From contig JBFWVL010000001.1 of assembly GCA_050246755.1 (NCBI GenBank), forward strand, positions 1,198,486 to 1,262,485: a DNA stretch of 64,000 nucleotides, in the 5' to 3' direction. This document shows, one piece after another, positions 14,690 to 61,251 of the stretch. The notes under the pieces are model-generated. The model saw nothing but the letters and a program-made list of their open reading frames with translations, was not told the DNA's origin and did not search any database. The translations under genes and the position numbers were made by a program. The stretch's first letter is position 1; every line of letters begins with the position of its first letter. Source of the DNA: Bacteriovoracia bacterium (GTDB taxonomy: Bacteria; Bdellovibrionota; UBA1018; CAIPTA01).

Positions 14690-14787
14690 GGGCACTCCTT
14701 CATAACGGTGAGATAGGAAATATGGGAATAAAATAAAGAAGGGCAAGACCGCGAAGCCTTGCCCATACTTATTGTTTACAATCTGAA

Positions 14788-14991
14788 CTAGAAGCTAGGG
14801 CGACGGCCTTTTTTCTCCGAACGCTTGCGGGCGGCCAAAGATTTTTTCTTGCGGCGAACGCTGGGCTTTTCGTAATGCTCACGCTTACGAACTTCGGAAA
14901 GAATACCGGCTTTTTCACAAAGCTTTTTGAAACGCTTAATGGCGTTTTCGAAGGACTCGCCTTCGTTTACGCGAATGGTAGGTTTTTCCAT
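14788..14991 (-). CDS. rpsU: 30S ribosomal protein S21
   Basis: 67 aa, [50 protein letters not shown]..., basic C-terminus; characteristic S21. Confidence 0.9.
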
Positions 14992-15022
14992 AATTAAAGA
15001 TCACCCCGCTTTCAGAGTCCCC

Positions 15023-15051
15023 AACTTAGTGGCTAGGAAGCGAGATGTCAA
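15023..15051 (-). promoter_or_regulatory. Candidate sigma-70 promoter for the rpsU-yqeY-dnaG-rpoD operon (TTGACA-N17-TAAGTT on minus strand)
   Basis: Minus strand reads TTGACA (15051..15046), 17-nt spacer, TAAGTT (15028..15023), about 30 nt upstream of the rpsU ATG. Confidence 0.4.
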
Positions 15052-15053
15052 TT

Positions 15054-15416
15054 TCACATGGTTTTTACGCTATAGCCAAAGGCCCGAATCCGGCCCAAAT
15101 CCATCTCAGAGATCTCGAGATCTACGGTTTTCCCGGTAGGTGCGCCGCATTTGGTAACGCGCATGCGCCCATCCGTGCCGCTCCTAGCATTAAAAACTAC
15201 CACCCCGGCTGCAGTTACCTCTTGGGCCGCCGCTTTAGGTGTGAGCTTAGAAGGACTTTCACATTGCTTAGAACCATCAGCCTTAGAAACCCAAACGCGA
15301 TTATCGCTCTCTTTTTTCACTTTCACCTCCCAGCGATTTTCGGATTTTTGCACCGCGCTAGTGCAGGCGGCAAAGGCCAGGAATGCCAGGAAAGAAAACA
15401 GATAAGAAAAACGCAT
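15054..15416 (-). CDS. Small putative lipoprotein, unknown function
   Basis: 120 aa; N-terminus MRFSYLFSFLAFLAFAAC resembles a lipoprotein signal peptide with lipobox cysteine. Overlapping plus-strand ORF 15045..15455 is Arg-rich with no features. Confidence 0.5.
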   Translation of the reverse strand: MRFSYLFSFLAFLAFAACTSAVQKSENRWEVKVKKESDNRVWVSKADGSKQCESPSKLTPKAAAQEVTAAGVVVFNARSGTDGRMRVTKCGAPTGKTVDLEISEMDLGRIRAFGYSVKTM

Positions 15417-15601
15417 AGTCCTCCTAGAAATTCAGTACTTGAAGCGAAAAGATAGCATCATTTTGCGGGTATAGGCAAAGCTGGCCTGGGCTTAAAAACG
15501 GCGCTATGATCGCCAAATCCATTTCTACCTATAGCCCCGCGGCCCCGCTTCAACAAAACGGCCGCAATTGGGGCAATACAGAAACGGCTAAAAGAGGAAC
15601 T

Positions 15602-34795: not shown

Positions 34796-36760
34796 ATGCC
34801 GGCCTCTCTTCGACTAAAACTGGTAGGCGAAGGGCCGGAAATCGATAGCATCGAGAACTCTATTCGCGCGGCGTCTATCGCCTACCAGCGATTTCCCGAA
34901 ATCGAGGGCGCCTGCGAAAGCCAAGAGCTGGAACCGGCAGAAATTTTCTTGCTTAGCCCTTCGCTTTATTTTCAATCCCACCTAAGTCAAATTTCGAAGC
35001 TAGATCGTGCGCCCGAAGTCCTACTGGTGACCGGAAAGAAATTACCGAACTTAGCAAAAATTTTGGTTCCTCATCCCATTTATACCAATTGGGGCCCCGG
35101 TGAAATCGACTGGCAAATTCAGCGAGCCGCCGAATTCCACCGTCGCAAGCGCCGCCTAGACGCGCTTCGCGATCATCACAAGCGAAGCTGGAATTTAGAA
35201 TCTAATCCCGCTATCAATCTCGTAACGAATTTGATGCGTAAATGCACCATGGCCGAGGAATATCAGGATCTACTCACCGCGGTGCTCACGCTGCGCTCGG
35301 TAATTGACTTTCACGACTGCTGCCTTGTTACGCTCGATGGGGACCAAAACCTAATTGAAGGCTGGCACTGCCCACGAGAATCCAAAGAACGCTTTGAACG
35401 TATTGATTTAAGTAAAGCAGAGCCGCAGGTTCTCCGTTCCCTAGAGGAAGGCACTGCCCAGCTCTTTAGCACCGAGCAAGCTGGAAAATGGGAAAAATTC
35501 ACCAAGCACCCTTGGAGTTTCGGCATGGCCATGCCTTTCTCCGTGCACGAAAGCCCCCGCCGCTCAAAGGCTGCTAAATCAGCGGTACTTCTGCTTTTTC
35601 GTCGGGAACTGGTGCCATTCGTGGAGCGGGATGTCTGGCTGCTGGAGCTCACCTATGGCCCGCTAGCGCTCGCCCTGGAAAAAATCGCGATGCTCAAGGC
35701 CATCGGTCAGGCGAGCAAAGAATGGCGCGCCACCTTCGACGGAATATCCGAACCGCTTACCGTAATTGACTCTACCTACCAAATCGTGAAAGCGAACAAA
35801 GCATTCGCGGCCCTAGTAGACCAAGACTACAAGAAACTTAAAGGGAAGCGTTGCTATTCTTTACTTGCCAACCGTCGCACCCCCTGTGTCGGATGTCCCG
35901 TCGGCATGGGAACTCAGCCGCAGGGTGGTTCTCGCGTGCAGCTGCAAGGCAAAATCCGCAAGGATCTTCTGGTTTGGTCTTACGGCATTCGCACCGGCCT
36001 GGAATCTTACCAGTTCCAATTTTATCGTAACGTTTCCAAAGAAACTGCGTTGGCTTCTACGCTTATCCAATCCGAGAAAATGGCGGCGCTCGGTCGCCTA
36101 GTGGGGGCGGTAGCGCACGAATTAAATAATCCCCTCGCCGGAATCTTAGCCACCAGCCAGATTCTTCTGCAGGAAGGCAAAGAAGACGGCCTGGATGCCG
36201 CCACGATGGATGATCTCGAAGAAATTCGTTCCGCTGCCTGGCGCTCCAAAAAGATTATCGATGATCTTCTCGGTTTCACTTCCACCGAGGAACAAAAACT
36301 CGTGGAAGCGAACTTGCTTGATGCCGTACGCTCAGCGCTCACCTTCTCCAAGGCCGCCCTGAAAGACGTAGCCGTTAAAGTGCATTCAGAAAAAGTCGTT
36401 CCGCGCGGAATCGTTTCTACGCACGCCCTGCAGCAAGTTCTCTTCAATCTGATCACGAATGCCGCCCAAGCCATGAACGGAAAGGGGGCGATCGAGATCT
36501 CGATCCGCGGCGAGGACGAAAGTTACCGCATCGACGTAAAAGACTCCGGGCCTGGCATTCCGGCCGAAAAATTGAAAAATATCTTTGAGCCCTTCTTCAC
36601 GAGCAAGCAAGAGGGAATGGGTACCGGCCTCGGGCTTTCCATTGTGCGCCACCTTACCCAAAAAATGAATGCTCGCCTCGAGGTAACGAGCGCCCCGGGC
36701 AAAGGCACTTGTTTCAGCATCTTCGTTCCACTTGCTCCTTCCCCCGAGGAAAAAGCATGA
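34796..36760 (+). CDS. Sensor histidine kinase with cysteine-motif sensory region
   Basis: 654 aa; H-box VGAVAHELNNPLAGI, G-box GTGLGLSIVRHL, and a CYSLLANRRTPCVGCPVG cysteine cluster in the sensory region. Confidence 0.8.
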   Translation: MPASLRLKLVGEGPEIDSIENSIRAASIAYQRFPEIEGACESQELEPAEIFLLSPSLYFQSHLSQISKLDRAPEVLLVTGKKLPNLAKILVPHPIYTNWGPGEIDWQIQRAAEFHRRKRRLDALRDHHKRSWNLESNPAINLVTNLMRKCTMAEEYQDLLTAVLTLRSVIDFHDCCLVTLDGDQNLIEGWHCPRESKERFERIDLSKAEPQVLRSLEEGTAQLFSTEQAGKWEKFTKHPWSFGMAMPFSVHESPRRSKAAKSAVLLLFRRELVPFVERDVWLLELTYGPLALALEKIAMLKAIGQASKEWRATFDGISEPLTVIDSTYQIVKANKAFAALVDQDYKKLKGKRCYSLLANRRTPCVGCPVGMGTQPQGGSRVQLQGKIRKDLLVWSYGIRTGLESYQFQFYRNVSKETALASTLIQSEKMAALGRLVGAVAHELNNPLAGILATSQILLQEGKEDGLDAATMDDLEEIRSAAWRSKKIIDDLLGFTSTEEQKLVEANLLDAVRSALTFSKAALKDVAVKVHSEKVVPRGIVSTHALQQVLFNLITNAAQAMNGKGAIEISIRGEDESYRIDVKDSGPGIPAEKLKNIFEPFFTSKQEGMGTGLGLSIVRHLTQKMNARLEVTSAPGKGTCFSIFVPLAPSPEEKA

Positions 36761-37116
36761 AAATTCTAGTGGTAGACGATGAAAAAATAATTTCTAGCAG
36801 CCTCCAGCGAGTGCTTACTCGCGCTGGCCACGAGGTAATGGTGGCAAATAACGGCGTAGAAGCATTGCGCATCATCTCCGAAAATAAAAAATTTGAAGTG
36901 GTTTTTCTGGATCTCCTGATGCCGGAAATCGGCGGCGCGGAAGTTCTGGATTTCGCGAAAAGAGCAATGCCCCAGGCTAAAGTATTGATGATGACGGCCT
37001 ACGGGGATCTATCGGTGAAAGAAGATCTAGTGGCCCGCGGCGCGCTCCGAGTGCTTGCCAAGCCCTTCGACGACATTACTTTAATTCCGCAAATGGTAAC
37101 AGAACTTGGGAATTAA
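36757..37116 (+). CDS. Single-domain response regulator (CheY-like receiver)
   Basis: ORF 36709..37116; start taken at ATG 36757 (ATGA overlap with kinase stop, GAGGA RBS); MKILVVDDE...VFLDLLMPEIGG...VLAKPF. Confidence 0.8.
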   Translation: MKILVVDDEKIISSSLQRVLTRAGHEVMVANNGVEALRIISENKKFEVVFLDLLMPEIGGAEVLDFAKRAMPQAKVLMMTAYGDLSVKEDLVARGALRVLAKPFDDITLIPQMVTELGN

Positions 37117-38639
37117 AAAATCGCGGCCTTTTTCACGGTGGCGATCAGCGCACCCGGAAACAAGCCATAGTTAATCGTGAGAAATATGCAAATCGCGATT
37201 GCCAGGTAGGCAAAGTTAGATTTGCGGAATACCAGACTGGGCTCAGTTCCCTCGCTCATATACATGAGCACCACGAGGCGCAGGTAGTAGTAAACGGATA
37301 CGGCGCTCGTGAGAACGGCGATCAATACCAGCAGGCCTTCACCCGCTTCGAGGGCGCCCGAGAACATATAGTATTTTCCCACGAAGCCCGCGGTCGGCGG
37401 AAAGCCTCCCAGACTGAGCAAGAAAATCGTCAGCGCCGCGGCCACCCAGGGGTGGCGTTTTGCAAGGCCGGCCAGGCCCTGCGTGGTGAGCGCGCCGTCG
37501 GCTTTGCCGGCGAAGAGCGACATCAGGGTGAAAGCCCCGATATTCATCGCCGAATAGGCCACTAGGTAGAAAATAATTCCCGAATATCCCACCCAGGGAC
37601 CCGCCAGTAGGCCCACCAGCAAATAGCCCGTGTGGGCAATCGCCGAATAGGCCATTAGCCGCTTTAGGTTCGTCTGCATTAGAGCCACGAAATTCCCGAT
37701 GAGCATGGTGGAAAGAGCAATCCACCAGAAGATCGTATGAATGAGATGAAATGCCTGCACGTGAGCGCCAATTCCATCCACCACCCCGTGTACCTGAGGC
37801 CCCCAAAAGGCATGCCCAACGCGAATCAGCGCTGCAAATACGGCGGCCTTCAAAGCGGTGGCCATATAGGAGGTAATGTTCGTAGGCGCGCCCTCGTATA
37901 CGTCGGGGGCCCACATGTGAAAAGGAGCAGCAGCAATTTTAAACAAGAACCCCACGAGCAAGAACACGAATCCCGCGATCAGCAGAGGATTCGAAAAGGC
38001 ATCGGGTTGGGCGGTAAGGGCCTTCGAAATATCCACGAGCTTCGTGGTATTCAGAGCACCGTAGATCAGCGCCATTCCGTAGAGATAAATCGCAGCGGAA
38101 GCGCCGCCCATCACGAAATATTTTACCGAGGCTTCATTGCTGAACGCATTCATGCGGCGCATGCCCACGAGCACATACACCATGAGGCTCATCAGCTCGA
38201 GCGCCACGAAAAGCATGAGGAGTTCTTCCGAGCAAGCCAGCAGCATCATACCGAGAGTGGAAGCGAGCAGGATCGGGTAAAATTCGGCGAAGTGGATCTC
38301 GCTTTCGTCGAGGTAGGAATAAGAGCCCATCATTACGAGTAAAGTGGCTCCACAGAGAAGCACATTAAAAAAAGACGAGAAGTAGTCGAGTACGATTGCG
38401 CCGCCAAATACGCGGATGGGCTCCTGCACCCAATGGAGTTCCGTCCAAACGATGGTCATCACGAGTGTAATCGCCGAAAAGATAAAAAGCGGAAGCTTCT
38501 TGCCCGGGCCTTCGCCGAAGTGGACGGTAGCCAAAAGCATCGAAAGCATAATTCCCAGCGTGAGAATTAGGTACGGGCCGAGCGCCATCCACTGGGCCGT
38601 GGAGAGCACCAAGTTTTGTGGATTAATTATAGTGAGCAT
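37113..38639 (-). CDS. nuoN: NADH-quinone oxidoreductase subunit N
   Basis: 508 aa polytopic protein; LFKIAAAPFHMWAPDVYEGAPT motif; last gene of the canonical operon. Confidence 0.9.
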   Translation of the reverse strand: MLTIINPQNLVLSTAQWMALGPYLILTLGIMLSMLLATVHFGEGPGKKLPLFIFSAITLVMTIVWTELHWVQEPIRVFGGAIVLDYFSSFFNVLLCGATLLVMMGSYSYLDESEIHFAEFYPILLASTLGMMLLACSEELLMLFVALELMSLMVYVLVGMRRMNAFSNEASVKYFVMGGASAAIYLYGMALIYGALNTTKLVDISKALTAQPDAFSNPLLIAGFVFLLVGFLFKIAAAPFHMWAPDVYEGAPTNITSYMATALKAAVFAALIRVGHAFWGPQVHGVVDGIGAHVQAFHLIHTIFWWIALSTMLIGNFVALMQTNLKRLMAYSAIAHTGYLLVGLLAGPWVGYSGIIFYLVAYSAMNIGAFTLMSLFAGKADGALTTQGLAGLAKRHPWVAAALTIFLLSLGGFPPTAGFVGKYYMFSGALEAGEGLLVLIAVLTSAVSVYYYLRLVVLMYMSEGTEPSLVFRKSNFAYLAIAICIFLTINYGLFPGALIATVKKAAIF

Positions 38640-50151: not shown

Positions 50152-50514
50152 CTATTCCCACTCGAGCCCGCCGCGGCGCCATTCGTATAAAAAGGCCACG
50201 GTAATCATGGTCATGAAAAATAGCATTACGCCGAGGATGAAAAAGTTCACCCCGAGAAATTTCCGGTACGCGAGGGCCCACGGAAAGAGCAGGGCTACCT
50301 CCACATCGAATAATAGAAAAGAAAGTGCCACGAGATAGAAGCGAACCGAAAAACGCTTTCTCGCGTCTCCACTAGGAGGTACGCCGCATTCGTATACGGA
50401 ATTTTTGAATTTATTAGGTCGCTTTGGTCCCAAGAGAGCCGCGCCGAAAATTACGGCGAACGAGATGCCTAACCCCACGAGAAACAAAAGCAAAACCGGA
50501 AAATACCCGGACAT
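50152..50514 (-). CDS. nuoA: NADH-quinone oxidoreductase subunit A
   Basis: 120 aa; YECG motif and FDVEVALLFPW; AGGGGG-type RBS upstream of the ATG. Confidence 0.88.
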   Translation of the reverse strand: MSGYFPVLLLFLVGLGISFAVIFGAALLGPKRPNKFKNSVYECGVPPSGDARKRFSVRFYLVALSFLLFDVEVALLFPWALAYRKFLGVNFFILGVMLFFMTMITVAFLYEWRRGGLEWE

Positions 50515-50556
50515 GCTGCACCCCCTAATGTGTGCAAAAAATTTAGCATGTTGGAT

Positions 50557-52011
50557 TTATTTAAGAAAGACTTTTGCAGTTTCGAAAAGTAAGGCAAATA
50601 CCCGATGCCAAAGGAATCCAAGCGCGGCGAGAGCAACGATTGCGACGGCTAACGAGAGCCACTCCAACGCGCCGTACCGAAACAGAACAAGAGGCGCAGT
50701 GTTTGTCGACGACGAAGCGCGTTGGCGGAATAGTAAATCCGTTCCCACGCGAATGGAAATTAGCGAAAGGGTGGCCACCAGCAGTACTTCGGCCGCGAGG
50801 AAAAATAGGGATTTCTGTTCCATCATCGCCGCCAAAAGATTCAATGCCATGGGAAATCCAGGTAAACCAGGAATGCAAAGCGGGCTGGCGAGCGCCAATA
50901 ATAGCAATAACCCCGAAGAGCGAAACGTGCGCGCGGCACCGTAGACATCTTTTAAATTTTCGCCGCCGGCACTTTCTTGAAATCGTCCCCAGTTAAAACC
51001 CAAAAGACTGGTCCAAACAAAAACCGAGGCAAAAGCATAGGTAATGGAGGATGCACTAAGTACGGTCGGCAATGCACCGGCCACTAAAATGGCCGACCAC
51101 TGCGCGCCCACTAGGGCACTGAAAAGACGCTTTGAATTTTCCTGCGTGAGCGCCACTAGGGCCAGCCAAAAGCCACCGCTAAGCCCACAGAGCTGTAACG
51201 TGCGCAGTCCCTCGGAAACTTCCCCGGGCCGAGCCTTGCCAAAAACCTCCACTCCCATTTTCCACAAAGCGAGGGTAACCGTTCCCTGCCAGATCACGGA
51301 AAGGGTTACCACTACCGGCCAGGGCATTCCTTGGTCGCGATCCACGTGCGCAAAGTGAAATGGAAAGAGTCCGGCGGCCATCACGAAGGGCAGGCAAAGC
51401 GCAAACACCACGAGAAGCGCGCTGAGGGAATAAATCGATTGCGCGTGAAGAAAAGAAGAGATCACATCATAGTGAACGCCGCCGGCGACCACGGCCAGAG
51501 CCGTAGCCGCGCCAAACCCACCCGCCATTACCAGAGAAGCTTGAATCCAGTACTTCAAGACGGCTTCCCCTTCACCGCGACCCCGAAACGCCAGGCCGCC
51601 GAGGAAAAGAGATAACCACGATCCGCAAACCAGAAGGATAATCGAAAGGGTCATCTGTCGGGAAAGCAGCAAGAGATCACAAAGCATTACCAGCGTGGAA
51701 AGCAGGAAAAGAACTTCGTGTTTTCTTTTTGCGGGTAACTCTTTGGTGGCCACAACGCCGCGCCCCAGGAGAAGGGCCGCCACGAAAAGAGCCGCACGCG
51801 GCAAACGGAAAAGCGGTTGATCTTCCAGAAGCCCGAACCAGATTTGGGACTGATCGGCCGATTGGCCCACGGCCAAGGTTGCCATTGCCGCCAAAAATCC
51901 GAGGCTTGAAAGAAATTCAATCGCCGTGCGCGAGCGAGAACTGCGGTTAAAAAGCAGCGCCACTCCTTGCGCTAGCGTGGCTAATCCGACGACTAAAATC
52001 GATAAGGGCAT
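50557..52011 (-). CDS. Divergent complex I antiporter-like membrane subunit (NuoN-like)
   Basis: 484 aa polytopic protein; EAVLKYWIQASLVMAGGFGA and GLFPFHFAHVDRDQGMP align by eye with nuoN EASVKYFVMGGASAAIYLYG and AAPFHMWAPDVYEGAP, but charged residues differ. Confidence 0.65.
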   Translation of the reverse strand: MPLSILVVGLATLAQGVALLFNRSSRSRTAIEFLSSLGFLAAMATLAVGQSADQSQIWFGLLEDQPLFRLPRAALFVAALLLGRGVVATKELPAKRKHEVLFLLSTLVMLCDLLLLSRQMTLSIILLVCGSWLSLFLGGLAFRGRGEGEAVLKYWIQASLVMAGGFGAATALAVVAGGVHYDVISSFLHAQSIYSLSALLVVFALCLPFVMAAGLFPFHFAHVDRDQGMPWPVVVTLSVIWQGTVTLALWKMGVEVFGKARPGEVSEGLRTLQLCGLSGGFWLALVALTQENSKRLFSALVGAQWSAILVAGALPTVLSASSITYAFASVFVWTSLLGFNWGRFQESAGGENLKDVYGAARTFRSSGLLLLLALASPLCIPGLPGFPMALNLLAAMMEQKSLFFLAAEVLLVATLSLISIRVGTDLLFRQRASSSTNTAPLVLFRYGALEWLSLAVAIVALAALGFLWHRVFALLFETAKVFLK

Positions 52012-52023
52012 GCCGACCTCAAA

Positions 52024-53478
52024 CTAATTGCCATTTAATCCTTTCAGCAGGGCCGCCACCGATACTCCCATGGGCCCCAGAAGCAGGCTCGGCAAAACCC
52101 CTAAAACCAAAAGCACCAGACCAAGCGGTGCAATCGCAAGAATCTCTTCCCAAACCAAGTCGTGAAACTCTCCGCGATCTCCATCACCGGCCCCGGCGTC
52201 GAGACGAAAAAACATAATGCTCATCCCAGCAAAAGCAACCACCGGAACTGCTAGCGTAACCACGAGCAGCGGCCAGCTATGCACCCCGCTCAGCGACCAA
52301 ATAACGAAAAGTACCCCGTAGAATCCAATGGAAACCGGCAGAAAGAGCGCAAAAAGGGAGGCCGCCGCCGTGCTGAGCGCAAAGGCAGGAAATTCACGGA
52401 TTCTTTGGAGCGGTAAGGGGAATTTTCTTCTCTCGTGACAAGCAAGCACGAAGAGCATGAACGGAATAGAGAGCGTTTGGAAAAATAGGAGAATAAGAGA
52501 GCCGTGCCACCCTTTGGGATTTAAATTGAACAAGCCGATGGCGATGAACGAGCAAACGGTCTGCTGCAACCAAAATACGCGATCGCGCGCCTGGCGTGCG
52601 CCGAGAAAATTCAGCGCACAGTAAAGGGCGCCGATGGAGAAAAAGGCCAGAAGGTAATGGCCGAACCGCAAAAGCTCGCCGGGAAAAAGCTCCACCACGA
52701 AACGAGAGAGCAAAGTAAATCCCAGAAGCGGCTGCAGCGCTAGCGGCACCGCTTTTTCTACGGATTCCATTTCGAATATCCGGCGGGTGCTGCCGTGAAA
52801 GGGAAATATTCCGGCGCCGATCCCGAATGCCAGCAGCAATAATCCAAAGCCGATCGACCCCGGCAGTACCATATAGGTATCGCCCGATAGTCGGAACCAC
52901 TCCCCGATGGAACCACGGAATCCCTCCGAGAACGCCAGCACGCAAAGCAATAACGACAATGAAGCGATGGTAGAGAGAAAAGCCGCCTCGCGTACCGGCT
53001 CAATGCGATTTTCCTTTGCGTCTACCCCGGAAAATATAAATCGGGGGAGTAATGCGCCGGCAAAGAAAACAGAGAAAAGCAAAAGGTGATCAGCGCCTAG
53101 GGCACCGAGCACACAAGTCAAGTAGGCGGAAAGGCTGGCTACCGAGGCGCGGGATTTCTCGAGCATTCCCCTCGCCAGAAAGTGATAGCAAACGGTTACG
53201 GAAGAGACCGCTAGCGCCAATATTCCCGAATGAAATACCCAGCGGAGGCCCGTGTGATTCGACCAAGCGCTCTGGGCGAGAATCGCCGGAGAAAGCACGC
53301 TTCCGGCGTATTCGTTGGGCGAATAGAAGCCGATGGCCAAAAACAGAAAACAAACCCAAGAGAGAAGGTGCACCAACAACGAAAATGCCCAGAGCTTCTT
53401 CCCGCGCACGGGACCGCAAGCCGCCACCGTGACGAGCAGAGGCAAAAACGTAGCGATTAGTCCCGCCCAGCCTTTCAC
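52024..53478 (-). CDS. Divergent complex I antiporter-like membrane subunit (NuoM-like)
   Basis: ORF 52024..53520; start possibly GTG 53478 overlapping the upstream stop (GTGA). GIGAGIFPFHGSTRRIF aligns with nuoM AIKVPLFPLHTWLPDAH; polytopic. Confidence 0.6.
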   Translation of the reverse strand: MKGWAGLIATFLPLLVTVAACGPVRGKKLWAFSLLVHLLSWVCFLFLAIGFYSPNEYAGSVLSPAILAQSAWSNHTGLRWVFHSGILALAVSSVTVCYHFLARGMLEKSRASVASLSAYLTCVLGALGADHLLLFSVFFAGALLPRFIFSGVDAKENRIEPVREAAFLSTIASLSLLLCVLAFSEGFRGSIGEWFRLSGDTYMVLPGSIGFGLLLLAFGIGAGIFPFHGSTRRIFEMESVEKAVPLALQPLLGFTLLSRFVVELFPGELLRFGHYLLAFFSIGALYCALNFLGARQARDRVFWLQQTVCSFIAIGLFNLNPKGWHGSLILLFFQTLSIPFMLFVLACHERRKFPLPLQRIREFPAFALSTAAASLFALFLPVSIGFYGVLFVIWSLSGVHSWPLLVVTLAVPVVAFAGMSIMFFRLDAGAGDGDRGEFHDLVWEEILAIAPLGLVLLVLGVLPSLLLGPMGVSVAALLKGLNGN

Positions 53479-54818
53479 AGGATCCCCCCGGCCAGCTGCG
53501 TGGCCACGACAATGAAACACATCAGGAAAACTCCATACCCAGCGAAAGCGGCCGGGGCCGACTCGAGAGAGGATTCCGCTCCCGGCTCAGGAGGACGATC
53601 ATCCACAAAAATTCTTCGGCAGATATGCACGTTGGCGCAGAAGTAAAAAAACCAAAGCAAGCCGAATACGATGCCGTAGCTGATACCGAGATCGAGGGAA
53701 CGAGCGCCGATCCCACTGAAAATCTGAAACACCGGGGTGCCGGGCACTCCGAGGATAAGCGCGAAAAGAATTCCCACGAAAACCTTCTGTAGCGGGCGCA
53801 CCACTTTGACCACCGAAGCATAAAGTACTAGCCCGGTGAATACTGGTACGAAGAGACAGGTAAAGTACGCGGATAGTACTAAGCTTGTCTTCGAGACTCC
53901 CACCGAAACCAAAATGAGCGAAAAGAAAAAACTCGGTAGGCTTCCCAGCATTTTTCGCCTGGATCCGGCCGCAAAAAGACCGCTGATAGAAAAGGCGCAG
54001 CCGGAGATTCCCAGTAGATACAAAGCCAGCTTCTGCTTCCACCCCATATCGGGATAAACCACAGAAAAAAGCGTGGATATCTTCAAGGCCACCGCGCTGA
54101 TGAAGGTAACCAAGGTAACGGTTACGCCTTCCGGAAGATTTTCCACCGCCATACTGAACCATCGGGACCATGGCGGAAGCGGAATCGAGAGCACTACAAG
54201 GCCCAGCCAGATAAATAAACCGAGCGAAGAACCGGAGCGGGGGCCGAATAGCATATCCTTCGCGCCGAATTCCACCACGCCCCATACAATCATCAGCAGT
54301 CCCAACAAGAAGTAGAGGCTATACATACGGCGGGAAATTCTATCTCCCATCTCACGACTGGCCCCGGCAATGGCAAAGCGAATTAGGTAGAAGAACACCG
54401 CCGCCGCCAGCAAAAGCAAACCCCCAGTAGCTACCGCGTTGTTAGAAATTATAAAAAGGCTGGTAAACGCCTGCGCCAGCGATAGCAGCACGCTTACCAC
54501 TCGCAGGCCGCCCGCCACCGCCCCCATCGCATGGGCAAAAAGAAAGCAGAGTTCTGCGGTGAGCAAAAAACCAAGCCGGAAAGAATCAAGCGAGAGCACG
54601 AATTCGAGCGGATAACCATCAGCAAGCGAGGTAGAAATTTCAATTACCGCTCCGCCAAATACAACCGGGCGTAAAAGCACGATGAGAAGTAGAGCGCGAA
54701 GGCTCGACGCGATGATCCCCGGGGAAACGAGCCTTTTGTGAAATGCATTCGGCAAAGGTATCGCGGCGGCGAAGGGCAAAACTATATACAGTAAGAATAT
54801 TAGCCGTTCTAAGCTCAT
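53475..54818 (-). CDS. Divergent complex I antiporter-like membrane subunit (additional NuoM/N-like paralog)
   Basis: 447 aa polytopic protein; IPLPPWSRWFSMAVENLPEG loosely aligns with the antiporter-like PLFPLHTWLPDAHVQAP region; 4-nt overlap with upstream gene. Confidence 0.55.
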   Translation of the reverse strand: MSLERLIFLLYIVLPFAAAIPLPNAFHKRLVSPGIIASSLRALLLIVLLRPVVFGGAVIEISTSLADGYPLEFVLSLDSFRLGFLLTAELCFLFAHAMGAVAGGLRVVSVLLSLAQAFTSLFIISNNAVATGGLLLLAAAVFFYLIRFAIAGASREMGDRISRRMYSLYFLLGLLMIVWGVVEFGAKDMLFGPRSGSSLGLFIWLGLVVLSIPLPPWSRWFSMAVENLPEGVTVTLVTFISAVALKISTLFSVVYPDMGWKQKLALYLLGISGCAFSISGLFAAGSRRKMLGSLPSFFFSLILVSVGVSKTSLVLSAYFTCLFVPVFTGLVLYASVVKVVRPLQKVFVGILFALILGVPGTPVFQIFSGIGARSLDLGISYGIVFGLLWFFYFCANVHICRRIFVDDRPPEPGAESSLESAPAAFAGYGVFLMCFIVVATQLAGGIL

Positions 54819-56563
54819 TTAGCCCCCAGGAGAAAGAGCACTCCGGCGAAAAGCGTGAGCACGGTTCCAAAAAACAAATAAAAGCGAATATTTCCGGAAT
54901 GAAGAAAACGCATCAGCCGAGAAAGCGAGGATCCGTAAGCGAGAAAACCACCCGGAAATTTCTCGGCAAAGAGCATCCGATCCGTCTCTTGCAGGGCACT
55001 GGCAGCGCGAATATTTATGGTTCCAGCTCTAAGCGCAATCCAGTCCATTCCTTTTTCGGGCGCAAGCACGGCCGCCTGATTCCAGCGGACAACCGCAGGA
55101 TCGATTCGCGGAAAAAGATCTTCCATTTTCTTTTCCTTATTGGCGCTCCAAATACTAAGGCGAGAATTAGCTCCAAGGAGCATACCCGCCAACCCTCCCA
55201 CCAGCAGGGCGGCCCCGCGCACTACAAGGGAAATATCGGATAAGAAATCTATCGGGAACTGAAGCAGCCCGGACAACCCATCGTAGGCCCGGAATAGAGC
55301 GGCCAGTTGAATCAGGATAACCAGTGACGCGGGCAAAACCGCGGAAGCGAAAGTAAAATTATTTTCCTTCTCTTTGTTCTGCCGCAGAGAACCCACCAAT
55401 GCCTTCACGGCCACCAGAGAAAGCAGAAAAGTGAGTATTCCCATGATGGCTATTTTCAAGATCGTTTCCCGATTCTCGGTATGCGCCGAAGGTACGCTCG
55501 TAAAAGGAACCACGCCGGAGATGATTCCCAGCAAAAACAGTGTGGCTAAGAATATGAGCGCCGTTCGCCACGCTTGGGCACTTTGGCGGGCGAAGCGGAG
55601 CAAAAGGCTTAGGGCGTAACAAGAAAGCAGGCCCATCGCTTCGAAGGCTCCCCAGCTTAATTCTTCCGGCTTTAAAGACGAGAAGCGCAGAAAGAGGATG
55701 TATCCAAAAATGCCGAATAACATCCAAAAGCTGGCGCTAAGCGTGGTGGAGGCGAGAAAAGACAAAGCCGAAAACAGTGCCGTGGCAACTGCAAATAGCG
55801 CCGAAAGCGGGATCCATAATTCGCCCGACATGTCCTCGTGGATAACTCTACCCAGCAGAAAAAAGGCCGTACCCGCCTGAATCAACGCGAGCGGAACATA
55901 GCGCCACTCGCTGAAATTATGCTTAGAAAGCATGAATGCCATCACGTAAAGCACCATGCCGAGCAGAACGACGGAGCTATTGGTAAAGAAGCTCGCCGCG
56001 GTGAGGCCGAGCATCGCGATCAATCCGAGAAATAAAAAACTATTTCGCTTAAAATAGGAAATTCTCTCGAGCTCGCCCTCTGTGCCGCCCATTTCTAGGC
56101 TGAAAGAATGCAAGAGGAAAACGGTGATTTCGATGAACATCAGCGAAAGGAGCGCGTTCTCGCTCAAGTAGGCGAGGGCCAGGAATAAGAACGAACCGCT
56201 TAGGAATAGAAAGCGCAGCGTACCCCTCGCGCCGCCGAAGGAAGAAGCGCCGTCGAACATGACCAAACCAAGCAAAACGGAGGCAGAAAGAAAAATCCAA
56301 ACGTACCGCACCCAATACATGAGTAACGACGGCTCAAAATAGCCGGAAGTGTCGGTGGAAAGGGGCAATAGAAATTCCATTTTCACCGGAAGCTCAAACT
56401 GAAAAATCCCGATTAGGGAGGCGAGCAGCATCGTGCCGAACAAAATAAGACCGCCACGCTTCTCGGAATCGGAACGGCGATCGCTCTTAAGCGCAAACAA
56501 AACCAGCGCCGCAAGCGGGGCGCAGAATATAAGCAGTGGCACTACGATATTCCCAAAATTCAT
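54815..56563 (-). CDS. Divergent complex I antiporter-like membrane subunit (NuoL-like by position and length)
   Basis: 582 aa polytopic protein immediately after the NuoK-like gene, with extended C-terminal region; canonical NuoL motifs not recognizable by eye. Confidence 0.55.
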   Translation of the reverse strand: MNFGNIVVPLLIFCAPLAALVLFALKSDRRSDSEKRGGLILFGTMLLASLIGIFQFELPVKMEFLLPLSTDTSGYFEPSLLMYWVRYVWIFLSASVLLGLVMFDGASSFGGARGTLRFLFLSGSFLFLALAYLSENALLSLMFIEITVFLLHSFSLEMGGTEGELERISYFKRNSFLFLGLIAMLGLTAASFFTNSSVVLLGMVLYVMAFMLSKHNFSEWRYVPLALIQAGTAFFLLGRVIHEDMSGELWIPLSALFAVATALFSALSFLASTTLSASFWMLFGIFGYILFLRFSSLKPEELSWGAFEAMGLLSCYALSLLLRFARQSAQAWRTALIFLATLFLLGIISGVVPFTSVPSAHTENRETILKIAIMGILTFLLSLVAVKALVGSLRQNKEKENNFTFASAVLPASLVILIQLAALFRAYDGLSGLLQFPIDFLSDISLVVRGAALLVGGLAGMLLGANSRLSIWSANKEKKMEDLFPRIDPAVVRWNQAAVLAPEKGMDWIALRAGTINIRAASALQETDRMLFAEKFPGGFLAYGSSLSRLMRFLHSGNIRFYLFFGTVLTLFAGVLFLLGAK

Positions 56564-56899: not shown

Positions 56900-57393
56900 T
56901 ACCGCTCCCTCCGCACAAGGAAGAATCCTCCGGTAACGATTACGATCAGGAAAAGCAGCGGAATCACCGCTAGCAGCCAGTCGGAGGTCCAGATTTTTTC
57001 GTGGAGCAGAGACAAACTTGGCGCCGGCGTCACCCCCGGTGGCATCAACTCCTCGAGCTCCAAGATCGCCAGCGCGCCGGTGACCACCGAGCAAAGGCCT
57101 AGCCATAGGAAAAACAGGCGATACAGCCAATCGGCACGGCGATTGCGGGCCGGGCGCGCGGGAAGCAGTTCTTGGGTGCGAAAATAAAGATAAATAGCGA
57201 AATCGGCCGAAAGAAATACCGCAATCATCATAATCCCAAAGTATCCGCCACTCATGAGTTCTACGGCCGCGCCCAAGCCAATGGAGCAAAGAATAGATCC
57301 CCAGAGTAAACGTTCGGTGGAATCGGCGGTGATCGCCATAATCGCGGAAATCAATGCCAACGCCAAACAGCTGCCAACAAAAAATGAGATCAT
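56899..57393 (-). CDS. Divergent NuoJ-like membrane subunit
   Basis: 164 aa, hydrophobic helices, in the J position between the NuoI-like and NuoK-like genes. Confidence 0.55.
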   Translation of the reverse strand: MISFFVGSCLALALISAIMAITADSTERLLWGSILCSIGLGAAVELMSGGYFGIMMIAVFLSADFAIYLYFRTQELLPARPARNRRADWLYRLFFLWLGLCSVVTGALAILELEELMPPGVTPAPSLSLLHEKIWTSDWLLAVIPLLFLIVIVTGGFFLVRRER

Positions 57394-57863
57394 CGTCTCA
57401 CCTCGTAAGTACGAATACGGGTGATGTCTTTATCGCTCTTCTGGCCGCCACCACGAAATACGGCGATTAAATCTTTCGTGCTCTCGGTAACGATTTCAAA
57501 TTCTTTGGAATAGGAAAGGCTAGCCTCGGGACAGATCTCGATACAAACACCGCACGAAAAGCATTTTCCCAAATGAATATTGAATTCTTGCACGCGAATC
57601 GTACCGTCGCGCAGGTTCTCGGAAGTAAAATCAATTGCCTTCACCGGACAGGCCGGAACGCAAAGACCGCATCCACTGCACTTCGATAAATCATTGGTCA
57701 CGTAGCCCTTATAGCTAGTGAACATGTCTAATGGGGCCTTGGCGGACACTAGGTCTGGATACTTTTCCACGACGCTTTTGTAACGATGCTTCGTACGGCG
57801 CAGAAAGCCGAAATTGATTTTCAGCGTGCTCTTGAGGGCGTTAATTACCTGCCTGACCTTCAT
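57390..57863 (-). CDS. Divergent NuoI-like 2x[4Fe-4S] ferredoxin subunit
   Basis: ORF 57390..57911; start probably Met17 at 57863 (ATGA overlap with upstream stop); two CxxCxxCxxxCP motifs (CSGCGLCVPACP, CFSCGVCIEICP). Confidence 0.75.
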   Translation of the reverse strand: MKVRQVINALKSTLKINFGFLRRTKHRYKSVVEKYPDLVSAKAPLDMFTSYKGYVTNDLSKCSGCGLCVPACPVKAIDFTSENLRDGTIRVQEFNIHLGKCFSCGVCIEICPEASLSYSKEFEIVTESTKDLIAVFRGGGQKSDKDITRIRTYEVRR

Positions 57864-58795
57864 CCGCGCACCCCCACCCAAACGGCTTCGAGAAAGAATC
57901 CGATGAGACATAGACGCAATAGCCAGCGGGCCGCCAATTCACTGGCGTCGGCCGAGCGAATCTTAGGAAAACTAGCCTGCAGAAGGGTGAACACGAATAT
58001 TCCGGCCGCCACTTTCAGCGGAAAGAGAACTTTCACGATGAGCCCGCTGGCCCCTCCGCAAAAAACGTATACCCAGAAACAAATCAAAGAGAATACCCAC
58101 ATTTTCTGCACGAAAATCGTGATGTATTGCATCGAGTGATTGAGGCTCTGCTCATCTTGCAGCTGCACTGGACTTTCCGTGGCGAAAAGGAAAATGGAGC
58201 AGAAGGCGGTTATGCCGCAAAGGAAAAGACCCGGACTGCTCAGCAGCGCGTGATAGGGGAAATAAATCTGAAAATCCGAAATCGCGCTCAAGTTGAGCTG
58301 ACCCACCCTTAGGGTTACGGCGAAAACCGATAGCAGCAATCCCGAAACTCCCATCGCCCGAAGCAAAAGCCGGCGGCGGCGGTCGAAACGCTCGCGTGAA
58401 TCGGCGGTGGCATGCACCAGCAGCGCCTCTAAAGCGGCCGCGATCATCGGAAAAAGCAGCAGGAGTGGAAGATCAATTTGATCGCCGCCCTCCGGGTAAG
58501 TTACCGCCAGCAAAGCCAGCAGGAATACTATGGGAAGAATTCGCCAAACCAAGGAGGCGAGACGTATCCGAAACGGCAGGGCCAATAAATCCGCCGGCTT
58601 CTTTTTCCGGGTTTTCTGAAAATCTTTCCAGACCTGAAAAAAATCCGTTTGCCCATGCCGGCCGGGCCCGTCGCGATGCTGCACGCGAGCAGCGACGAAG
58701 CGTTCGCAAAAAAGAAGGAAGAAGGTTCCCCCAAAGAGAAAGAGTAGCGAGCCCACGAGCGCCGCCCCGGCGAGCAAGAAATCTAGCGCACTCAT
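57860..58795 (-). CDS. Divergent NuoH-like membrane subunit
   Basis: 311 aa; RVQHRDGPGRHGQTDFFQVWKDFQK aligns with NuoH RxGPNxVGxxGLLQxxADxxK; polytopic. Confidence 0.7.
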   Translation of the reverse strand: MSALDFLLAGAALVGSLLFLFGGTFFLLFCERFVAARVQHRDGPGRHGQTDFFQVWKDFQKTRKKKPADLLALPFRIRLASLVWRILPIVFLLALLAVTYPEGGDQIDLPLLLLFPMIAAALEALLVHATADSRERFDRRRRLLLRAMGVSGLLLSVFAVTLRVGQLNLSAISDFQIYFPYHALLSSPGLFLCGITAFCSIFLFATESPVQLQDEQSLNHSMQYITIFVQKMWVFSLICFWVYVFCGGASGLIVKVLFPLKVAAGIFVFTLLQASFPKIRSADASELAARWLLRLCLIGFFLEAVWVGVRG

Positions 58796-59868
58796 TTGTC
58801 TACCTCCGAAAAGGAGATATCGAGCGAATGAATCACGAGGAAAGCGTCTTCCGCGTGAATTCCGCGCAGCAGGCGCGGCAGCACCTGAACCGCCATAGCC
58901 GAAGGGCAGAAAAAACTTACTTGCGACGGCTGCGAACGGCCATCGGATTCAACCATCGCGTAGATAGCTCCGCGAGGGCCCTCCACGCCACAAACTGCTT
59001 TTCCGGGCGCCGGGCGCACGTCTAGACCCACCCGGATGCGGTGGTTACCCGAAGGAATATGGCGAAATACGGATTCGATGAGCTGAGCCGACTGCAAAAT
59101 TTCCCGCTTGCGAATGTGTGCGCGGTCGAACGCGTCTCCCAGATAATTCCTCGAGGTGTCTAGCATCATCTCTGTGCCACGATAAGCGCCGTAGGGGCGC
59201 GAAACCCGAAGATCGCAGTCCGCTAAGCCGCTCGCACGCGCGTTAGGACCAGTAATATTCCAATTTTTAACCATCGCCGCATCTAACTGGCCCAAACCCC
59301 GGGTGCGCTTTTCGAAAAACGGGTGCGTAAGGAGGGAGCTTTCTAGATCCGGCAAAAATTCTCTTAAGCTGGCCACGGCTTTTTCGATTTTAAAAAACCA
59401 TCCGTCGGTGGCGTCGCTGATCACTCCACCAAGGCAAATAGAGCCGAAACCAAGGCGCGAACCGCAATACATCTCAAATATATCCGCGAAGCGCTCGCGT
59501 TCCCGGAGGCAGTGATTCATGATCGCAGCCTGCCCGGCAGCCCTGGCCAAATTTCCGTAGTAATGAAGATGGCTGGCAATTCGGTTGAGCTCGAGCAGAA
59601 TTAGGCGAATCTGCTCAGACCGAGCCGAGATTTCTATGCGCAGCAAGTCTTCGCAGGCCGAGGCAAGAGCGAAATTGAAGGCCGGAGCCGCGAGATAATC
59701 GAGGCGATCCATGTAATTTAGGGCTTGGGCTAAAGGTAGCTGCAATGCGATCGCTTCCAGGCTACGGCGTCCATAACCCACGGTCATCCGGGCGTCGGCC
59801 ACTAAGCCACCGTCTTCTTCGAGCTTCAGCCCGAAAGCACCGATTCCCTGCGTTCCCGCAAGATACAT
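58792..59868 (-). CDS. Divergent NuoD-like (49-kDa-type) subunit; no NiFe-binding cysteine motifs
   Basis: ORF 58792..59967; start probably Met34 at 59868. LAGTQGIGAFGLKLEEDGGLV / VGYGRRSLEAI / YMDRLDY / HSLDISFSEVDK align with canonical nuoD GPQHPATHGTLRIV / IGYLHRGMEKL / YTDRLNY / GSVNIIAGELDR. No CxxC pairs at either terminus. Confidence 0.75.
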   Translation of the reverse strand: MYLAGTQGIGAFGLKLEEDGGLVADARMTVGYGRRSLEAIALQLPLAQALNYMDRLDYLAAPAFNFALASACEDLLRIEISARSEQIRLILLELNRIASHLHYYGNLARAAGQAAIMNHCLRERERFADIFEMYCGSRLGFGSICLGGVISDATDGWFFKIEKAVASLREFLPDLESSLLTHPFFEKRTRGLGQLDAAMVKNWNITGPNARASGLADCDLRVSRPYGAYRGTEMMLDTSRNYLGDAFDRAHIRKREILQSAQLIESVFRHIPSGNHRIRVGLDVRPAPGKAVCGVEGPRGAIYAMVESDGRSQPSQVSFFCPSAMAVQVLPRLLRGIHAEDAFLVIHSLDISFSEVDK

Positions 59869-59879
59869 AGGAGTATAAT

Positions 59880-60272
59880 CTAAAGTGGTCGCCACGTGGC
59901 GTCCCTTTCTGGAATCATGCCGGCGAACTCTACTCCGTTGAAAGTGCGTAGCTCTTCTTCCCACCAAAGACTAAACGGCCAGAGGGCGCTGGGGCGCGGA
60001 AAGGCCGAAGAAGGAGCAACTTCCAGAATAAAAAAGATCGGTTCATTTCCGCACGTAAGCAGCAGCTCGATGGAAAGATTCGTGCCCGCGCCGGCCGTCG
60101 ATAACCCATGCAAAGCGGGGCGTTCGCCAGAGGGTAGCGCGCCCCAATGCTCGAGCAATTTTGCCAGCTCCGAAGTTCCCGCCTGGACGCGAGAAACTTT
60201 ATCTCCGGCCGCAGGGGTGCCCGGCACCTTCACGATGCCTCCCCAAATATTTTTTTCTCCGCCTGATCTCAC
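59880..60272 (-). CDS. Divergent, shortened NuoC-like (30-kDa-type) subunit
   Basis: 130 aa; LWPFSLWWEEELRTFNGVEFAG aligns with canonical [22 protein letters not shown]. Confidence 0.6.
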   Translation of the reverse strand: MRSGGEKNIWGGIVKVPGTPAAGDKVSRVQAGTSELAKLLEHWGALPSGERPALHGLSTAGAGTNLSIELLLTCGNEPIFFILEVAPSSAFPRPSALWPFSLWWEEELRTFNGVEFAGMIPERDATWRPL

Positions 60273-60718
60273 GACGCGGACCTCCGGATTTTTTCCTGCA
60301 ATTTAATCAGCGCATGAATCAATGACTCCGGTCGTGGAGGACAGCCCGGAATAAAAAGATCCACGGGAATTATGGCCTCGAGACCCGGGATACGATGTTT
60401 TCCTTCGGCCGAAAACATTCCACCGGTGCTGGCGCAACTGCCAACGGCCACCACGAATTTTGGATCGCGCATCTCGGCGTAAATCTTTTTCAGTTCTTCG
60501 GCAATGCCGGGAGTTACCGGGCCTGAAACAAAGAGCACATCGGCGTTACGATGATCGGTCACAATCCGGCAACCGAGCCTCTCCCAATCGAATCTCGGTC
60601 CGGAAGCAGCTTCCACTTCCAGGGTACAGCAAGAAAGCCCCACATGATAAACCCATAACGAATCCGCGAGCGCGGATTTTGGCTGAGAGGGAGCGGATTC
60701 TTTTTGGATCTCCATCAT
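60269..60718 (-). CDS. Divergent NuoB-like (PSST-type) subunit with N2-cluster cysteines retained
   Basis: 149 aa; SCCTLEVEA, GSCASTGG, PGCPP: all four N2 cysteine ligands in canonical spacing. Confidence 0.8.
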   Translation of the reverse strand: MMEIQKESAPSQPKSALADSLWVYHVGLSCCTLEVEAASGPRFDWERLGCRIVTDHRNADVLFVSGPVTPGIAEELKKIYAEMRDPKFVVAVGSCASTGGMFSAEGKHRIPGLEAIIPVDLFIPGCPPRPESLIHALIKLQEKIRRSAS

Positions 60719-61137
60719 TGGTTTTCCTTATCGGGCCACTCGAGATTGTCTATCCACTTCAGGTAGCTTTTACGGCCGCCGTACCAAAGTAGGGCCAGCA
60801 TCAACGCGGGAAAAATCAAAACCTTTCCCATCACCAGCCAGCGGTCGTGCATTTCGAGGGAAACTATTTTTTGCCGGTACGAAGCCCACATCGGCAAAGA
60901 GAGTGCGATTCCGCACCAGAGCATTAGCAGCCAAAGAACGTGATAGAATGAACGGAACGCACCTTCCGGGGCGCCGTTCCCTGGCTCACGAATTCCCTGA
61001 ACCTTTTCGAGACGATCCCATAGCACGAGCACCAAAATGGCCACAAAAAGCAGCACTGCTGGAATTAAAAAGAGGAGAAATCTAGAATACATCTGCCGTC
61101 CTTGAGTTTCAGTGCCTCTTCCCACAGCCATATTCAC
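60715..61137 (-). CDS. Divergent NuoA-like small membrane subunit
   Basis: 140 aa (start ambiguous: GTG 61137, ATG 61131 or ATG 61092); three hydrophobic helices; C-terminal YLKWIDNLEW resembles NuoA YEWRRGGLEW. Confidence 0.5.
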   Translation of the reverse strand: MNMAVGRGTETQGRQMYSRFLLFLIPAVLLFVAILVLVLWDRLEKVQGIREPGNGAPEGAFRSFYHVLWLLMLWCGIALSLPMWASYRQKIVSLEMHDRWLVMGKVLIFPALMLALLWYGGRKSYLKWIDNLEWPDKENQ

Positions 61138-61194
61138 CCGGCGGCAATGCCGATCCGGATCCTTGAAATGCCTAATGTGAGAACTGACCTAGGA

Positions 61195-61223
61195 AGCGTA
61201 AGAACTTTGCAGGAACGTGTCAA
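61195..61223 (-). promoter_or_regulatory. Candidate sigma-70 promoter for the divergent complex I-like cluster (TTGACA-N17-TACGCT, minus strand)
   Basis: Minus strand reads TTGACA (61223..61218), 17-nt spacer, TACGCT (61200..61195), in the 114-nt divergent intergenic region shared with mfd. Confidence 0.35.
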
Positions 61224-61251
61224 GAATTATGCTGTAATATGGGATAGTTAG

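Follow-up and report, generated by a model that had tools for sequence, protein, structure and literature searches.

We analysed the junction between two complex-I-like gene sets that lie head-to-tail on the minus strand of a 64-kb window, by which we mean the whole stretch of 64,000 nucleotides. The minus-strand gene train runs from A' (ATG 61092) to nuoN (stop 37113) and comprises 12 divergent and 14 canonical genes, in agreement with the total of 26 given in a preliminary description of this DNA. The geometry of the junction was also described exactly, with a stop at 50557 and the nuoA ATG at 50514 separated by 42 nt on the same strand: the TAA stop codon of N' occupies 50559-50557 and the ATG of nuoA occupies 50514-50512. 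The genes and features from which the argument starts are these:

61195..61223, minus strand: promoter-like site of the divergent cluster (TTGACA 61223-61218, 17 nt, TACGCT 61200-61195)
60715..61092, minus strand: A', first gene of the divergent 12-gene cluster (125 aa)
60269-60718, minus strand: B', divergent cluster
58792-59895, minus strand: D', divergent cluster
57390-57863, minus strand: I', divergent cluster
54815-56563, minus strand: L' (582 aa), one of four large membrane proteins
53475-54818, minus strand: M1' (447 aa), another of the four large membrane proteins
50557..52011, minus strand: N', last divergent gene (484 codons), NuoN-fold antiporter-like, about 17% identical to known NuoN
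50515..50556, minus strand: spacer from the N' stop to the nuoA ATG, 42 nt, ATCCAACATGCTAAATTTTTTGCACACATTAGGGGGTGCAGC
50521..50526, minus strand: Shine-Dalgarno sequence of nuoA, AGGGGG, 6 nt 5' of the ATG
50152..50514, minus strand: nuoA, first gene of the canonical 14-gene nuoA-N set (Pfam Oxidored_q4, E 3e-33)
37113..38639, minus strand: nuoN, with which the train ends; a convergent response-regulator ORF runs into its stop codon

At 42 nt the spacer is the largest gap in the train, and since all other junctions overlap or measure at most 25 nt, it alone is big enough for a signal. Its GC content is 0.43, against 0.53 in the flanks. NuoA (120 aa) has an identical start across all relatives, and the context from the ribosome-binding site to the start codon, GGGGGTGC[AG]GC-ATG, is nearly invariant among them. 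The inverted repeat noticed earlier next to this ribosome-binding site is indeed there (TGCAC 50536-50532 and GTGCA 50521-50517); we rejected its hairpin as a functional element, given that 6 of 10 loci lack the outer G-C pair and that its energy does not surpass that of shuffled sequence. Folding of the spacer did not rise above shuffles over either 52 nt (z -0.9) or 131 nt (z -1.3). The variation in gap length between relatives, 42 to 234 nt, excludes a plus-strand ORF that spans the gap (50405-50944). Searches against Rfam gave no match at E<=1 in 50300-50800 and, at the gathering threshold, a single tRNA and nothing else in the whole 64-kb window.

Judged by ORF sizes and order in the window, the canonical set encodes NuoA-N in order, including the NuoE, F, G N-module. 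Pfam families are given for the orthologous canonical genes in three related loci (L001, L014 and L021; related loci are numbered with an L), and orthologues of nuoB to nuoL reach identities of up to 72-99%. A histidine kinase gene (654 aa) and a single-domain response-regulator gene on the plus strand (34796-37116) converge on the end of the train. With its end at 37116, the response-regulator ORF shares 4 nt with the end of nuoN (stop 37113), so that no space is left there for a terminator.

The proteins of the divergent set are harder to place. Pfam recognises B' (Oxidored_q6), D' (Complex1_49kDa), I' (Fer4) and, weakly, H' and K', and finds no family for the four large membrane proteins, A', C' or J'. 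Alignment of profiles with hhalign relates M2' to NuoM (97% probability), N' to NuoN (92%) and H' to NuoH (91%). For N', a profile of 21 sequences found no match in the PDB, so a fold search was needed to place it: its AlphaFold (AF2) model (pLDDT 76, pTM 0.81) has as its top Foldseek matches the complex I chains N / NdhB (TM about 0.78, 17% identity). L' and M1' have no Pfam match at E<=5 and no hhalign similarity to NuoL, M, N or each other. The assignment of C' is weak, and A', J', L' and M1' are placed by gene position only. No homologue of nuoE, F or G was found within the upstream cluster, and the only nuoEFG genes of the array are those of the canonical downstream set. The cysteines of the N2 and 2x[4Fe-4S] clusters are present, as CC...C...CP in B' and as two CxxCxxCxxxCP motifs in I'. 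D' carries GYGRRSLEA in place of the NuoD motif GYLHRGMEK and is missing a segment of about 22 residues. These residues suggest that the electron path of the divergent enzyme is probably intact and that its quinone site is probably altered.

The closest proteins come from uncultured Bdellovibrionota. Among the matches listed, N' is immediately followed by nuoA on the same strand in every related contig that reaches far enough, including the 3.08-Mb contig L021, and where the upstream end is covered the array adjoins a divergently transcribed mfd. In the closer loci the tandem layout goes with N' identities of 47-97% and gaps of 42-234 nt, distributed as follows:

42 nt: the window, L014-L017, L021 and one NCBI assembly
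44 nt: L006, L011 and L022
53 nt: L005
113 nt: L001
119 nt: L009
151 nt: L004
190 nt: L008
207 nt: L010
225 nt: L007
234 nt: L003

The tandem layout also persists in three more distant relatives, L018-L020 (NuoA 63-66% identical), where the gaps measure 49, 81 and 59 nt. One of them, L019 (1-5919), has a single antiporter-like gene (486 aa) after the K-type gene, against four in the window, so the size of the membrane arm varies in this enzyme family. The outgroup L024 (1-8000; NuoA 55% identical) has a Pfam-recognised L-M-N-type cluster 3.2 kb before nuoA on the same strand, separated from it by a glycosyltransferase gene, a methyltransferase gene and one further gene on the opposite strand. 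Since genes of the opposite strand directly precede nuoA in L024, nuoA needs its own promoter there. This arrangement may represent the state that preceded the fused array.

At the upstream end of the train, the candidate promoter proposed near 61195..61223 gained support from comparison. In 7 of 8 relatives, with A' proteins only 53-84% identical, the block CTAACTATCCCATATTACAGCATAATTC-TTGACA-N17-TACGCTT hardly differs. Our consensus scan missed this site because its -10 hexamer matches at only 3 of 6 positions. A GTG/ATG further upstream, in frame with A' in the window, falls out of frame in L015. Seven relatives have an almost unchanged copy of the 28-nt block CTAACTATCCCATATTACAGCATAATTC (61224-61251), which abuts the -35 hexamer of A' on its 5' side. 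On the other strand it reads TGcTGTAAT just before the ATG of mfd, which starts at 61252 on the strand opposite to A', and it may serve as a back-to-back promoter for mfd or as a site for a regulator.

We then asked what separates the two sets transcriptionally. A consensus terminator scan found none in the spacer, and a laxer scan based on T-tract rules found none from the N' stop to the conserved box described below, either in the window or in 14 related junctions. The preliminary description had seen no convincing intrinsic terminator in the gap and proposed terminator prediction; these scans concur. Between the N' stop and nuoA there is no G+C-rich stem of 5-7 bp or more with a U tract after it. 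As a positive control, the scan used on the junctions detected the terminator of rpsU, a gene elsewhere in the window, and since rpsU has such a canonical terminator the organism uses intrinsic terminators. The nearest candidate lies inside nuoA:

50496..50510, minus strand: small hairpin CCGGGTATTTTCCGG with a T-rich tract, in nuoA codons 2-10, with a stem of 4-5 bp

We rejected it as a terminator: such matches are no more numerous than in shuffles, the stem is largely forced by Gly GGN and Pro CCN codons, and the hairpin, in codons 2-6, sits under the initiating ribosome, before Leu and Phe codons. As for Rho, only 42 nt are untranslated and C equals G over the last 166 nt (no C-over-G bias); such a short, C-unbiased stretch is a poor substrate. 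Rho-dependent or other non-canonical termination at the junction would nevertheless be compatible with the sequence. With no terminator at the junction, read-through from upstream is the default expectation, and the junction has the features of a single operon: same strand, short spacer and adjacency conserved across divergent genomes. The earlier suggestion that both modules are co-transcribed from 61195..61223 is plausible on three counts (no terminator, conserved adjacency, a promoter conserved in 7 of 8 relatives), and the read-through itself is what we infer from them. Relatives with long leaders carry an attenuator-like hairpin and T run between the box and the ribosome-binding site that is absent from the window (L003 10535-10552; L010 about 11614-11638; L008 about 11604-11620; and the L007 leader); GAGTCGCGTCTTTGCGCGCTCC is an example from L010 and L007.

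The rpsU locus also provides a precedent for promoter-like sites in this DNA. Its features are:

15054-15416, minus strand: lipoprotein-like ORF of 120 aa at a divergent intergenic region, preceded by gaTGCTATCTTTT (15457-15447)
15051-15023, minus strand: rpsU promoter-like site, TTGACA (15051-15046), 17 nt, TAAGTT (15028-15023)
14790-14991, minus strand: rpsU (Pfam Ribosomal_S21, E 1e-22)
14764-14741, minus strand: rpsU terminator, a 10-bp stem with 6 G-C pairs and a T tail

The rpsU site lies within a 62-nt same-strand gap that starts right after the stop of the preceding ORF, and its TAAGTT is the hexamer of the nuoA box in several relatives. The window has 7 occurrences of the pattern TGNTANNTTTT, where 2.3 would be expected, and 0 of 100 shuffles gave as many as 7. 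Taken by itself, the region 14741-15457 on the minus strand is a small locus with clear promoter-like and terminator signals.

The preliminary description had also reported no convincing promoter hexamers in the nuoA spacer. Our consensus scan of the gap likewise found no promoter of the TTGACA/TATAAT type with at least 9 of 12 matches, but comparison with the relatives did not support the absence of a promoter, revealing an invariant box that matches an extended -10 element:

50563..50568, minus strand: predicted -35 position, TTTCTT, a weak match (2 of 6) inside the last N' codons
50540..50548, minus strand: extended -10-like box TGcTAAATT (TGCTAAATT), with TG at 50548-50547 and the hexamer TAAATT at 50545-50540
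50528..50534, minus strand: CACACAT block, at the predicted transcription start around 50533

The pattern T-G-n-T-A-n-n-T-T is unchanged in all 14 non-redundant junctions and, with L021 and L022 added, in 16 of 16 distinct ones, a count that overstates independence, since the 16 junctions come from phylogenetically related, closer relatives. The junctions were aligned by anchoring them on the shared box. The invariant positions are those that define an extended -10 element, namely a TG one base before the hexamer, T(-12), A(-11) and T(-7). The two middle positions of the hexamer are free, and L021 has a C-to-G change at -13. Because this division into invariant and free positions matches the tolerance of extended -10 elements, we read the box as an extended -10 promoter. 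Two T residues after the box are kept in 13 of 14 junctions, and a block [CT]AC[AT]C[AG]T follows 4-5 nt after the box or T-run. In the window this block is CACACAT, which is kept in 11-13 of 14 junctions and lost in L021. Pairwise identity at third codon positions is 43% in the adjacent nuoA and 35% in the last 20 codons of N'; set against these values, the conservation of the spacer indicates that it is selectively maintained and not neutral. The motif is missing before nuoA in the more distant relatives L018-L020 and in the outgroup L024, which limits its age to the closer clade.

The surroundings of the box behave like those of a promoter. TAAATT matches TATAAT at only 4 of 6 positions, and the poor -35 in the window is as expected if the TG extension compensates. 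In six loci with long gaps, GTCGAC is fixed 15-16 nt before TGCTA, which yields the arrangement TCGACT-17-TA[AG]NTT (including TAAGTT); the -35-like hexamer TCGACT of these relatives has 4 of 6 matches at a spacing of exactly 17 nt. The distance from the box to the ATG, on the other hand, floats between 33 and 112 nt and amounts to 64-112 nt in four loci. A fixed distance to the upstream hexamer combined with a free distance to the ATG is the behaviour of a promoter, unlike that of a translational element. All 9 short-gap loci use CTT for the penultimate codon of N' (Leu, in the region 50560-50568), as does 1 of the 7 long-gap loci, the other 6 having TTG, CTG or TTA; this bias hints at a constraint at the DNA level where the upstream half of the promoter overlaps the end of N', or at shared ancestry. 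The spacer probably carries an internal extended -10 promoter, to which we infer that RNA polymerase binds; the predicted start near 50533 would give a leader of about 19 nt that contains AGGGGG.

Other readings of the gap were tried and discarded. A sigma-54 reading of its TTGCA lacks GG at -24, and TTGCA is not conserved (L016, L006). A sigma-28 reading (TAAA-N15-GCCGATAA) found no -10 match in the sequence. The second copy of TGCTAAATTTT, at 6912, is likely a chance occurrence because it falls within a 494-aa ORF. Two further motifs were observed in the course of these searches. The gaps of L003, L004, L010 and L007 share a second motif, GAAAAATTGTTTAG, located some 45-70 nt upstream of TGCTA; the window lacks it, the equivalent position there being N' coding sequence. 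The motif CACATTAGG occurs exactly twice in the 64 kb, both times in a minus-strand leader (50524-50532 in the nuoA spacer and 61171-61179 in that of A'), and at least two matches were seen in only 1 of 100 shuffles. Conservation of the copy in the A' leader, which lies downstream of the A' promoter, does not extend to L015.

Sigma-70 promoters of the extended -10 (TGn) class can work with a minimal -35 element or with none. The nuoA box resembles them in its TG-n-hexamer, its weak -35 and its suitable distance before the Shine-Dalgarno sequence and the ATG, and differs from typical examples in its hexamer, TAAATT or TAAGTT, which has T instead of A at -8, and in the conserved T-run that comes next. 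The Escherichia coli-type nuoA-N operon consists of 14 tightly packed genes with a promoter upstream of nuoA. The canonical set examined here is like it in the order A-N, the overlapping or abutting cistrons and the promoter-like element with a short leader before nuoA. Unlike the E. coli operon, it has twelve more complex-I-like genes 42 nt upstream on the same strand with no terminator in between, and its nuoA promoter is internal, with an upstream half that overlaps the preceding coding end.

The box also takes part in a possible RNA helix over the nuoA start codon:

50545..50550, minus strand: CATGCT, the reverse complement of AGCATG (50517-50512, the start codon and the 3 nt before it)

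The six pairs of CATGCT with AGCATG are intact in all 10 short-leader junctions (60 of 60 cells). Four variable pairs of the helix show one-sided, wobble-preserving transitions only, with zero compensatory double changes. RNAalifold found the helix independently, together with U:G pairing to the ribosome-binding site, at a consensus energy of -5.5 kcal/mol. In L021 a G-G mismatch breaks the helix, and TGnTAnnTT is kept. Neither compensatory changes nor stability above background (z -0.9), the marks of a structured RNA, were seen. The conservation of CATGCT could partly act at the RNA level, and a hairpin that masks the start codon would be the weaker alternative to an internal promoter. The two readings are compatible: an RNA that starts at about 50533 would be without the CAUGCU arm, and only read-through RNA would have it.

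From sequence and comparison, we give about an even chance to a nested operon in which read-through of all 26 genes is combined with an internal nuoA promoter. Transcription would start at the conserved A' promoter (61223-61195), with RNA from about 61188, would meet no terminator at the N'/nuoA junction and would continue into nuoA-N, for a transcript of about 24 kb and 26 genes. The spacer promoter (TG 50548-50547, TAAATT 50545-50540), with its start near 50533, would produce the canonical nuoA-N without the divergent set. Coupling would be asymmetric: whenever the divergent set is transcribed the canonical set, including nuoEFG, would be transcribed too, and the reverse would not hold. The same absence of a terminator would also suit one obligate 26-gene unit with no internal promoter, which we consider unlikely. 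Its box would act in RNA, tuning nuoA translation or marking a processing site, through a hairpin in which CAUGCU pairs with AGCAUG and the U-run pairs with the GGGGG of the ribosome-binding site. Such a role agrees with a six-pair helix that survives in 10 of 10 short-leader junctions through wobble-preserving changes alone, and with the RNAalifold result. Yet there is no compensatory double change, the shuffle control is uninformative, and the fold is shallow, with -5.5 kcal/mol for the consensus and z of -0.9 and -1.3 for single sequences. An RNA element would moreover not account for the invariance of TA, for the constant 17 nt to TCGACT in the long-gap loci, or for a box that stands 64-112 nt from the ATG in four loci and that keeps TGnTAnnTT in L021 despite the helix mismatch.

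The conserved promoter-like box would also suit two separate units, in which the divergent transcript stops at the junction or shortly beyond it (through Rho, a roadblock, or a terminator that is weak or non-canonical) and nuoA-N is transcribed only from its own promoter; we hold this to be improbable. Consistent with it are the terminator-like hairpin at 50510-50496 (CCGGG...CCGG with a T tract), the hairpins with T runs in the nuoA leaders of L003, L007, L008 and L010, and the clear separation of the two clusters in the outgroup L024. However, the hairpin in the window has only 4-5 bp, mostly dictated by Gly/Pro codons and beneath the initiating ribosome, terminator-like matches are not above shuffles, and no structure comparable to the 10-bp terminator of rpsU was seen. 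An untranslated stretch of 42 nt with C = G is a poor target for Rho, and strictly conserved same-strand adjacency is a trait of operons. Least probable, and very unlikely in our estimate, is that the conserved block serves mainly as a transcription-factor operator, for example of a redox or oxygen regulator, that controls passage into nuoA or initiation there. The conservation does reach further than the -10-like positions, taking in CACACAT and, upstream in the long-gap loci, GAAAAATTGTTTAG, and CACATTAGG is found in two places, the nuoA gap and the A' leader. Against this, the block has no operator-type dyad symmetry, L021 has lost CACACAT while keeping TGnTAnnTT, the second CACATTAGG copy is not conserved in L015, and no regulator gene lies in the array. 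Under the nested-operon reading, the conserved promoter-like box makes nuoA-N probably transcribable alone, so strict co-regulation of the two modules, for which the preliminary description had named co-regulation as a possibility, is unlikely. The conserved tandem layout, the lack of a terminator and the conserved box together lead us to predict one-way coupling, with transcription starts near 50533 and RNA reads that bridge 50515-50556.

As regulatory architecture, an internal extended -10 promoter within an operon is ordinary; less so is the conserved tandem array in which this one would lie. Complex-I-like enzymes of 11 subunits without NuoEFG are known, for example in Desulfitobacterium hafniense (PMC11238625; survey in PMC4453560). 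The upstream cluster is like them in having B, D, H, I, K and N-type subunits, no E/F/G and preserved Fe-S cysteines. It is unlike them in having four large membrane subunits instead of three, with no detectable similarity for L' and M1', and in lying directly before a complete canonical set that holds the only nuoEFG of the array. For a genome that encodes nuoEFG once and the other genes twice, the possibility of two isozymes has been noted (PMC4453560). The array shares with that genome one N-module set and two sets of the other subunits; here, in contrast, the sets are head-to-tail in one array and the second is far more divergent (NuoN about 17% identity). Complex I types with a fourth pumping subunit, the Nitrospira 2M type and the rhizobial green complex I, are described in PMC9040806, citing Chadwick et al. 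2018. The upstream cluster is like these types in its four antiporter-sized membrane subunits after a K-type gene, and differs in that only M2' (NuoM-like) and N' (NuoN-like) are assignable. A Peredibacter genome paper reports two nuo clusters in Bdellovibrionota that are not adjacent, and our literature searches returned no description of a head-to-tail tandem array of two nuo sets.

The junction decides whether the divergent complex-I-like enzyme is expressed with ordinary complex I or independently of it. If the divergent enzyme borrows the NADH-oxidising module, one-way coupling is what one would expect to see. A more far-reaching version, which we regard as quite doubtful, is a 26-gene super-operon for two forms of complex I that share one NuoEFG module, with the junction setting their ratio and the helix damping nuoA translation on read-through RNA. 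If this were true, read-through would guarantee NuoEFG and the canonical subunits whenever the divergent four-subunit membrane arm is made, and the internal promoter would provide the canonical enzyme alone.
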